From positions 224,001 to 288,000 of the forward strand of contig JABHQW010000008.1 in the NCBI GenBank assembly GCA_018696595.1: a stretch of 64,000 nucleotides of DNA, given 5' to 3'. Source of the stretch: Candidatus Woesearchaeota archaeon (GTDB taxonomy: Archaea; Nanobdellota; Nanobdellia; Woesearchaeales; GW2011-AR9). The translations under genes and the position numbers were made by a program. Position 1 is the stretch's first letter. The number at the start of each line of letters is the position of its first letter. A model generated the notes under the pieces. That model was not told where the DNA came from and ran no database searches. It saw only the letters and a list, made by a program, of their open reading frames with translations. Of the stretch, positions 57,002-58,877 are shown piece after piece.

Positions 57002-57742
57002 TTAATGTCCCACATGTAAATTTAATTTAAGACTCAATTTCTGATAAACAAACCCGGCAACACTTTTTAAATTCTCAATATCTTCACCATTATACTCCAA
57101 TAACAAATCCAAATACTCTCGGTCGCCAGAAGCGTGGAACGCTTTCCATAAGTCAACAGGATTGCCATAAAGATGAGCTGGCCTCCCTAATCCCAGTCTC
57201 TTCTCAACTTCTTTCAACCCTCCAACTAATCCTAAATTAACACAAAGTTGTTTCAAGTCTAGATGAGCAACTTTAACAACAATACCCATTTCCTTTCTTA
57301 ACTTCGGTAAATCAAACGCACCACCATTAAACGTAACAATTAATTTGTACTTCGATAACTCTTTTTCAATTTCTCCTTTTGACAAATTAACTCCTTTGAC
57401 AAAATAATTACTATTGTAATAATCAGAAATGCCTACTACGATAACTTTCCCCACAGAATCAACTTCAATATCCAAGTAACCTGTTTCTTCTTTAAAATAG
57501 TCATACAATCTCCAAGTCTCAACAGCAGCTAATTTTCCAATAAAATAATTACTCTCCTCATTAACTAAAGCTTCTTTAGCCTCTTTAATTTTCCGATTAT
57601 AATATTCTTTGCTTCGCACAGAAATTCCTTTAATCTTATCAACACGAAGAAAATCATTCCAATCTTTAATTCCTGAGTTCCAAATATTTTTCTCCTTACC
57701 GGAACCAACTTTCTCCAAAAAAATAAACGATTTTCTGATCAT
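57002..57742 (-). CDS. RNase H-like (YprB/RNase_H_2) exonuclease
   Basis: YLDIE, TFNGGAFDLP, HLDL, GGLKEVEKRLG, YNGEDIENL. Confidence 0.85.
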   Translation of the reverse strand: MIRKSFIFLEKVGSGKEKNIWNSGIKDWNDFLRVDKIKGISVRSKEYYNRKIKEAKEALVNEESNYFIGKLAAVETWRLYDYFKEETGYLDIEVDSVGKVIVVGISDYYNSNYFVKGVNLSKGEIEKELSKYKLIVTFNGGAFDLPKLRKEMGIVVKVAHLDLKQLCVNLGLVGGLKEVEKRLGLGRPAHLYGNPVDLWKAFHASGDREYLDLLLEYNGEDIENLKSVAGFVYQKLSLKLNLHVGH

Positions 57743-57837
57743 AACTATTTCAAGAATAAACTAATTTAAATGTTTATGTTTTTCTACCTCGCAGGGACAG
57801 GAAATTTTTATAAACTCCTCGACATTCTACTTATTTC

Positions 57838-58026
57838 CTACTGTTCACGGGAGAATTGATTTCACTTGTTGATGTCTTCGGATTGATGCTTGTGTTTGAT
57901 GCTTCGGACGTGTTCAGTTAAATCGTTTCAGTTGTTTGCGGGAGAATTGATTTCGCTTGTTGACGTCTTCGGATTGATACTTGTGTTTGAAACTTCGGAC
58001 GTGAACTGCTGAGAATTTCTTTTTTT
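57838..58026 (+). ncRNA. Candidate structured ncRNA made of two 65-nt units
   Basis: TATA at 57807-57814; units at 57848-57912 and 57939-58003; T-tract at 58016-58026; most unit differences preserve pairing. Confidence 0.55.
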
Positions 58027-58094
58027 CATTCAATGATAAGTTGAATAATAACAAATTTTATATACTTCTCCGTAACGTGATACTCTATTAATCC

Positions 58095-58877
58095 ATGGGG
58101 GTGGAAATTAAAATGGTAAATTTATTATTGTTTGGGTTATTGAATCCAATTGTTATTGCCGTAATCTTAATCGTTCTGGCAAGTTTGAAAGTTGTTAAAG
58201 AATACGAACGGGGAGTTCGATTTACATTAGGAAAATATACGGGGATGATGAAACCAGGATTAAGAATGGTTATTCCAGTAATTCAAAGTTGGGAAAGAGT
58301 TGATTTGAGAGTGAAAGCTGTTGACGTTCCTGATCAAGATTGTATTACTAAAGACAATGTTTCTGTAAGGGTTAATGCAGTTTTATACTTTAAAGTAGCC
58401 GAAGCAGAGAAAGCAATCATCGGAGTAGAAAATTACTTTTATGCAACATCTCAGTTATCACAAACTACTATGCGAGATATTGTGGGGGAAGTTACTTTGG
58501 ATGAACTTTTAAGAGAAAGAGATGAAATCTCAAAGAAGATAAAAATGATTGTTGACAAAGCAACTGATCCTTGGGGAATTAAAGTTGAGTCAGTAGATTT
58601 GAAACATGTAGAACTTCCAGATAACATGAAAAGAACTATGGCTAAGGAAGCCGAATCTGAGCGAGAAAAGCGAGCAGTAATCATTAAAGCAGAGGGAGAA
58701 GTTATGGCTGCTAATAATATGTCTAAAGCCGCTACAATGCTTGCAAAGGCGCCTGGTGCTTTACATCTGAGAACTTTACAGAGTATTAACGACATGAGTT
58801 CAGATCAAAGTAACACGATTGTCTTTGCTGTACCTTTAGAAATCTTGAAATCATTCGAAGGGTTCGCTAAGAAATAA
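58095..58877 (+). CDS. SPFH/band 7 (stomatin-like) protein
   Basis: KEYERGVRFTLG, TKDNVSVRVNAV, WGIKVESV, AESEREKRA. Confidence 0.92.
   Translation: MGVEIKMVNLLLFGLLNPIVIAVILIVLASLKVVKEYERGVRFTLGKYTGMMKPGLRMVIPVIQSWERVDLRVKAVDVPDQDCITKDNVSVRVNAVLYFKVAEAEKAIIGVENYFYATSQLSQTTMRDIVGEVTLDELLRERDEISKKIKMIVDKATDPWGIKVESVDLKHVELPDNMKRTMAKEAESEREKRAVIIKAEGEVMAANNMSKAATMLAKAPGALHLRTLQSINDMSSDQSNTIVFAVPLEILKSFEGFAKK

Follow-up and report, generated by a model that had tools for sequence, protein, structure and literature searches.

We analysed a stretch of 64,000 nucleotides, hereafter the window, from a genome of 1.19 Mb that is 97% complete (G000; the window is G000:C3:224001-288000). Two direct copies of 71 nt each, at 57842-57912 and 57933-58003, are 90% identical, recur with a period of 91 nt, and lie between divergent genes at 57002-57742 on the minus strand and 58095-58877 on the plus strand, so that the coordinates and the description of the repeat given in the original prediction were correct. 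The TATA box (TTTATAAA, 57807-57814) and the closing T-tract named there are both present in the sequence, with GGAAA just ahead of the box. The features of the locus are as follows.

57002-57742, minus strand: gene of the RNase_H_2 family (Pfam, E 2e-20).
57800..57814, plus strand: purine-rich BRE-like stretch and TATA box (GGAAATTTTTATAAA) of the RNA gene, read from the sequence; an equivalent box is present in most homologous loci.
57836..57920, plus strand: hairpin module 1, a covariance-model match (79 bits with model R1, 79.5 bits with model R2).
57850..57855, plus strand: 5' half of the invariant loop of module 1, GGAGAA (columns 15-20 of alignment A5, invariant or G/A only in 43 units).
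57877..57880, plus strand: UUCG tetraloop of module 1, closed by C-G; loop and closing pair are kept in 37-41 of 43 units (pairs 51/100 and 52/99).
57902..57908, plus strand: 3' half of the invariant loop of module 1, CUUCGGA (A5 columns 129-135, invariant in 41-43 of 43 units).
57921..57926, plus strand: short linker between the two model matches, of a length and sequence that vary among genomes.
57927..58011, plus strand: hairpin module 2, a covariance-model match (82.4 bits with both R1 and R2).
57941..57946, plus strand: GGAGAA half of the invariant loop of module 2, from the sequence and the unit alignment.
57993..57999, plus strand: CUUCGGA half of the invariant loop of module 2, from the sequence and the unit alignment.
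58016..58026, plus strand: oligo-T tract TTTCTTTTTTT, a likely archaeal terminator; nearly all loci have a tract like TTTCTTTT after their last module.
58095-58877, plus strand: SPFH/Band 7 gene (Pfam, E 1.8e-39).

A second promoter-like box, at 58053-58070, lies ahead of the SPFH gene. The 18-nt boxes at 57803-57820 and 58053-58070 are 83% identical and stand 250 nt apart, which suggests that the promoter may have been duplicated, or that both boxes fit a strong consensus. DNA of the window was found in 20 sequencing runs, all of them DNA libraries of marine or seawater origin. Assemblies from four runs break at the repeat when their contigs are compared with the window stretch, and related strains in those runs carry other versions of the basal stem, or a form with an insertion.

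Folding energy alone is not above chance in the host genome, and the window alone would prove no structure. The z-scores of the whole region were +0.29 for the plus strand and -0.24 for the minus strand, and those of the two units -0.23 and -1.12. For unit 1, RNAfold returned a rod with GGAG/CUUC, CAC/GUG and GUC-UUCG-GAU, in agreement with the plus-strand rod that had been proposed, and the stems of the family covary. The units of relatives fold well (z of -5.8 in G020 and -5.1 in G016), and the minus strand folds weakly. The case for a structured RNA is therefore made by comparison with relatives and not by thermodynamics.

BLAST searches identified the element in the related genomes G001, G020 and G016, adjoining the same RNase_H_2 gene, and in G068 in a different gene context. 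Of the 113 genomes of the Woesearchaeota family, 19, from 17 of the 58 genera, contained the module according to a first covariance model built from seven units, and each had it at a single locus; the same 19 genomes were recovered with a second model that was trained on 23 units. Among the other genomes sampled from the order, one of about 150 (G184) contained the module, and marine and aquatic metagenome contigs yielded 16 further units. The copies at each locus number one (e.g. G016 and G068), two (G000, G001, G020, G119, G054, G056 and G184) or three (G015). A pattern scan of the genome collection returned 43 stretches, nine archaeal ones of which pass the covariance model, the rest being chance matches expected for the pattern; on viral contigs the one pattern match fails as a model match.

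Standard pairs account for 90.8% of the pair cells in 43 distinct units, against 35-42% with partners slid by 1-3 columns, a contrast that is still large given that the pair-count alignments were fitted to a covariance model, which somewhat favours structure. Compensatory changes occur in 20 of the 24 pairs, including every one of the 12 basal-stem pairs, and the observed covariation score was reached by none of 500 shuffles. Covariation was also strong in a smaller alignment of 23 units, so that the stems do covary in homologs, as the original prediction had proposed to check. At many of the paired positions a good part of the units have G.U, which would be a C.A mismatch on the opposite strand, indicating that the functional strand is the plus strand and that the molecule is RNA. 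We consider it very probable that a structured RNA gene exists at the locus. As read from the covariation, each module consists of a basal stem of 10-12 bp and free sequence (P1), an invariant asymmetric loop, an irregular upper helix (P2) and a cUUCGg cap.

For the upper helix, we counted ungapped oppositions anchored at the core, over 12 positions in 42 units. In the first opposition above the core U21 faces R84, and 41 of the 42 units have U-A or U.G there. Oppositions outside Watson-Crick, G.U, U.U and G.A make up 5%, compared with 22-34% in slid registers, and the predicted register, with the UUGA words opposite one another, is thus right. Counted from the core, position 2 has G.A or A.G in 23 of the 42 units and a Watson-Crick or G.U pair in 17, and for position 3 the numbers are 21 and 20; ordinary pairs replace the tandem G.A in UUAGUU/GACUGA, UUGG/CCGA and UUUAU/UUGAA. 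P2 is irregular and tolerates Watson-Crick, G.U, U.U and tandem G.A oppositions only, and the alignment indicates that tandem G.A is tolerated in this helix, not required. The rod architecture rich in G.A and U.U was therefore readable correctly from sequence, and the comparative data shift the functional centre away from the site that had first been singled out.

This centre is a core of 13 nt between P1 and P2, which hardly changes in 43 units while the flanking helices change freely. Its strands, 5'-G-R-A-G-A-A opposite 5'-C-U-U-C-G-G-A, form a 6x7 asymmetric internal loop that is the truly conserved element, in place of the plain GGAG/CUUC helix and G.A loop that had been drawn at the base. 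Three folds of the core are possible: GAA:UUC paired, which leaves a 3x3 loop of purines (GRA facing GGA) and a single bulged C; GRAG:CUUC paired, with an AA bulge and a GGA bulge; or a Kt-7-like kink-turn, in which the basal stem would be the C helix and GRA the bulge, with GAA opposite GGA. The first of these is probably the best reading, favoured by the few natural variants. Unit 2 of G056 combines GAG with CUU and is without the bulged C, and G123 has GAA with UUU, both of which support GAA:UUC pairing. In G103, a good member of the family at 69.8 bits, C replaces an adenine that a kink-turn would need.

A 57-nt insertion containing two small hairpins was identified inside the 5' half of the core in unit 2 of G001 and in G058. 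It falls between GGAG and GAAUU and makes the module a four-way junction (L006:1588-1728 in G001 unit 2; L040, about 1440-1584, in G058); in G058 the module that bears it is the sole module. We considered and rejected an intron, as no bulge-helix-bulge could be drawn by eye at the ends of the insertion. Mimicry of rRNA was likewise rejected, since the rRNA operon contains no same-sense CUUCGG...GAGAA and the core motif pair has no other occurrence in the host genome.

The signals around the modules keep their positions across most loci, which supports the proposal of a plus-strand RNA that has a promoter and a terminator to itself. In most loci a TATA box of the form TTTAWATA, usually with purines ahead of it, ends about 17-27 nt before the first module. 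In contrast to these fixed signals, the neighbouring genes differ among genera, and an all-against-all comparison of flanking ORFs identified no recurring partner. The RNase_H_2 neighbour is confined to six close relatives; the RNase_H_2 gene is also present in genomes without the RNA, and in G010 and G014 it lies on a separate contig from the RNA. In G009 (L231, G009:C16), the RNase_H_2 and SPFH genes are separated by about 100 nt that contain no RNA gene, indicating that this site has seen gain or loss of the RNA gene in the course of the family's history. Thus, the fixed promoter and terminator positions, combined with differing neighbours, point to a stand-alone RNA and not a leader, and the varying neighbours, the restriction of the RNase_H_2 association to six relatives and the G009 gene pair argue against a leader or a cis role tied to one gene.

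Two divergent loci, in G125 and G123, are exceptions to this layout. Their modules (L035:320-411 and L045:1501-1595, respectively, both on the minus strand) have no box of their own and follow directly after a small membrane-protein gene, 4-35 nt downstream of it, as if they lay in its 3' UTR. The two membrane proteins are homologous, have 85-98 aa, and start with MAKKEWLDWLKCNVLE or MAKNEWLDWLKCNVLE.

Our preferred explanation, which we hold tentatively and with slightly less than even confidence, is that the locus is a stand-alone small non-coding RNA gene of marine Woesearchaeota (DPANN), and that its modules are docking sites for a protein. Judging from the conserved signals, transcription would start about 25 nt past the TATA box at 57807-57814 and stop at the oligo-T tract at 58016-58026, giving a plus-strand RNA of about 185 nt, which folds, as the covariation shows, into two rod-like modules. 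A protein would dock on the invariant loop and recognise its sequence, the one to three tandem modules would provide one to three such sites, and the RNA would act within a ribonucleoprotein or as a protein-titrating RNA, and not as a guide or leader. We favour protein docking because an invariant, purine-rich asymmetric loop is set between helices of free sequence, under a stable tetraloop, in one to three repeats on a strongly promoted stand-alone transcript. Against this, an invariant loop between covarying helices would fit a small-molecule aptamer or a catalytic core equally well, no gene co-occurs with the RNA locus, and the family is patchy, being present in about 17% of the family genomes, so that the RNA is either dispensable or too diverged to be detected elsewhere.

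By analogy, such an RNA may be compared with the bacterial sequestering sRNAs of the CsrB/RsmZ type, which are also stand-alone and carry a variable number of repeated hairpins with the same short GGA-containing motif, in copy numbers that vary among relatives. The likeness would be in logic only, as the motif lies here in an internal loop and not in a hairpin loop, and we know of no CsrA-like partner in archaea.

An L7Ae-binding kink-turn was the main alternative that we weighed against protein docking of this general kind, and we regard it as unlikely, though with a real chance. The original prediction had compared the UGAU/UGAU loops of the upper helix with kink-turns; these loops are symmetric and have no 3-nt bulge, which distinguishes them from simple k-turns, and about 40% of units have ordinary pairs in their place. 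A sharper form of the same idea can be placed at a different site, the invariant basal loop, which we take to resemble Kt-7. P1 would then be the C helix, G-R-A the bulge, and GAA would form sheared pairs with GGA. In alignment A5 there is little or no variation at G18, A19, G134 and A135, the host genome encodes two proteins of the L7Ae family, an L7Ae gene lying at G000:C4:40502-40777, and 42 of 43 units match the k-turn sequence pattern at the basal loop. A simple k-turn has a bulge of 3 nt and, next to it, G.A and A.G pairs (PMC5061560), and the order 5'-stem-GRA-GAA / GGA-stem-3' of the basal loop matches that pattern. The likeness to simple k-turns such as Kt-7, the sites bound by L7Ae (PMC5061560, PMC4914095), lies in this stem-GRA-GAA / GGA-stem arrangement.

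Several features nevertheless point away from a kink-turn. With U21 paired to R84 in all but one of 42 units, the kink-turn would leave the invariant CUUC as a 4-nt bulge beside the G.A pairs, and CUUC is better explained by GAA:UUC pairing, which the GAG/CUU double change in G056 unit 2 also favours. In the 69.8-bit member G103 the essential A1n is replaced by C, so that one member of the family lacks the key adenine. Finally, the 57-nt insertion of G001 unit 2 and G058 lies in the would-be bulged strand, a position that does not fit a k-junction, because the extra helix of known k-junctions is on the non-bulged strand (PMC4005666).

It is distinctly improbable, if of wider consequence, that the GRAGAA/CUUCGGA loop is the working centre of a new, DPANN-specific class of RNA, either as a switch between an extended (GAA:UUC) and a kinked, k-turn (GAA.GGA) form upon binding of a protein or ligand, or as a tandem aptamer or catalytic core. 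If true, regulation would follow a new principle here, in organisms for which hardly any regulatory RNAs are known. A separate reading, in which the modules are tandem, riboswitch-like aptamers that sense a ligand and control or report on downstream membrane and cation genes, seems very doubtful to us. Such aptamers would account for the invariant internal loop between covarying helices, and the tandem copies recall tandem aptamers; moreover, the downstream gene on the same strand encodes an SPFH protein in G000, G016 and G020, and by eye resembles a cation/proton exchanger gene in G001 and G058 and ChaB in G068. However, nearly all loci have an oligo-T tract after the RNA, the next gene in the window has its own promoter box (58053-58070), the next gene is convergent in G056, G054 and G015 and unrelated in G014 and G119 (by eye PAC2-like and GatE-like), and no Rfam riboswitch matches.

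A divergent H/ACA pseudouridylation guide, in which the invariant loop would be the pseudouridylation pocket, is highly unlikely. Nanoarchaeum equitans has a single, stand-alone, double-hairpin H/ACA RNA of 159 nt with a TATA box and a T-stretch (PMC3491384). The locus resembles it in belonging to a DPANN archaeon, in being a single gene of about 160-190 nt, and in having two extended hairpins with identical G.A motifs, a TATA box and a T-stretch terminator, with one locus per genome (PMC3491384); the host genome also encodes Cbf5 and contains no other known H/ACA RNA. Against this, no consistent ACA or ANA box lies 3' of any module, and the conserved CA is located in the paired basal stem. 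All modules share one identical "pocket", which lies directly on the basal stem, and it has no good target in the rRNA operon: for the predicted bipartite target, the best site there matches at 10 of 13 positions, while other sites in the genome match at 11-12, the best of them looking like coding DNA. Above the pocket there is no G.A motif with a 3-nt bulge, the upper UGAU/UGAU sites being symmetric and, in about 40% of units, ordinarily paired.

Most improbable, too, is the proposal that GRAG/CUUC and its bulges constitute a bulge-helix-bulge from which the tRNA splicing endonuclease excises the upper hairpins, perhaps as circular RNA. The topology of helix, 4-bp helix and bulge on both strands fits this layout, the 3' bulge has exactly 3 nt (GGA) in all units, the host genome encodes the splicing endonuclease at G000:C7:39444-39704, and ARAGORN finds only 14 tRNAs in the genome. 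Yet the 5' bulge would have 2 nt (AA) instead of 3, given the pairing of U21 and R84 in 41 of 42 units; the 4-bp helix is impossible in G056 unit 2; and the 57-nt insertion of G001 and G058 sits within the 5' bulge.

It is scarcely credible that the locus is not an RNA gene at all, and instead a small peptide gene or a set of DNA-level repeats (protein-binding iterons or a mobile palindrome): both G000 units do have a 21-codon frame from TTG (GGAG-AA-TTG) with two synonymous differences, and TTGA words do recur every 13-14 nt, but the frame ranges from 2 to 25 codons among homologs, with a stop within 23 codons in 24 units (within five in 13) and no TTG in 10, indels are not multiples of three, the single locus per genome is not dispersed as a DNA repeat would be, and compensatory changes with many G.U pairs indicate one RNA strand. 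Conservation of a reading frame in homologs, which had been named as grounds for giving up the RNA, is thus not what we found.

Known classes of RNA did not account for the element. The element had been put forward as novel, and searches of Rfam 15 with E values up to 10 indeed returned nothing beyond chance level: its best matches scored 16-18 bits against thresholds of 37-45 (E of 1.6-5.5), two of three lying outside the units. The whole window matched two tRNAs only, and six homologous loci gave no match at E up to 1. Hammerhead and hairpin ribozyme cores were rejected, as the module shows no evident likeness to them and none of the Rfam models of these families matched. A substitute for a universal RNA was rejected, as both SRP RNA and RNase P RNA are located elsewhere in the genome.

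A box C/D guide, which would have C (RUGAUGA) and D (CUGA) boxes at its ends, C'/D' boxes inside and guide spacers of about 12 nt, was rejected for want of canonical boxes, the nearest approach being GAGAAUU/CGGA with inner UUGA/UGAUGC, which gives spacers of 11 and 15 nt. Nop5 is encoded at G000:C3:291722-292345, about 4 kb past the end of the window. Two simple scans identified no convincing canonical box C/D sRNA in the host genome, and its C/D guides may be embedded in tRNA introns or have atypical boxes. A tRNA gene with multiple introns was also rejected: ARAGORN finds none here, no T-, D- or anticodon loop could be recognised by eye in the units or after removal of the upper hairpins, and single-module loci are bounded directly by promoter and terminator. 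In the whole 97%-complete genome ARAGORN identified 14 tRNA genes, eight of them with introns (e.g. C4:4350-4697 and C5:4888-4980).

Neither Rfam nor the literature that we searched describes this RNA. The element represents a new family of RNAs. Its general type, an archaeal small RNA of several hairpins, is familiar while its core is not, and it has so far been seen in one group of tiny marine DPANN archaea. To our knowledge, few structured non-coding RNAs beyond the universal ones are described in archaea, and almost none in DPANN archaea, which cannot be grown alone. It bears the marks of a functional RNA, namely its own promoter and terminator, heavy compensatory change, an unchanging 13-nt core and nothing catalogued that is alike. 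A module of about 85 nt with a clear invariant loop is a well-defined object, which could reveal a lineage-specific ribonucleoprotein or sensor.

The family may extend further than the genomes in which we identified it. G004 contains, at L009:1485-1556 on the minus strand, a hairpin flanked by promoter and terminator, with an upper part of the form UUGAU...UUCG...UUGAUG and without the GRAGAA/CUUCGGA core, which scores 20-26 bits only. This hairpin may be a truncated or diverged relative, and genomes negative for the RNA may likewise hold unrecognised versions.
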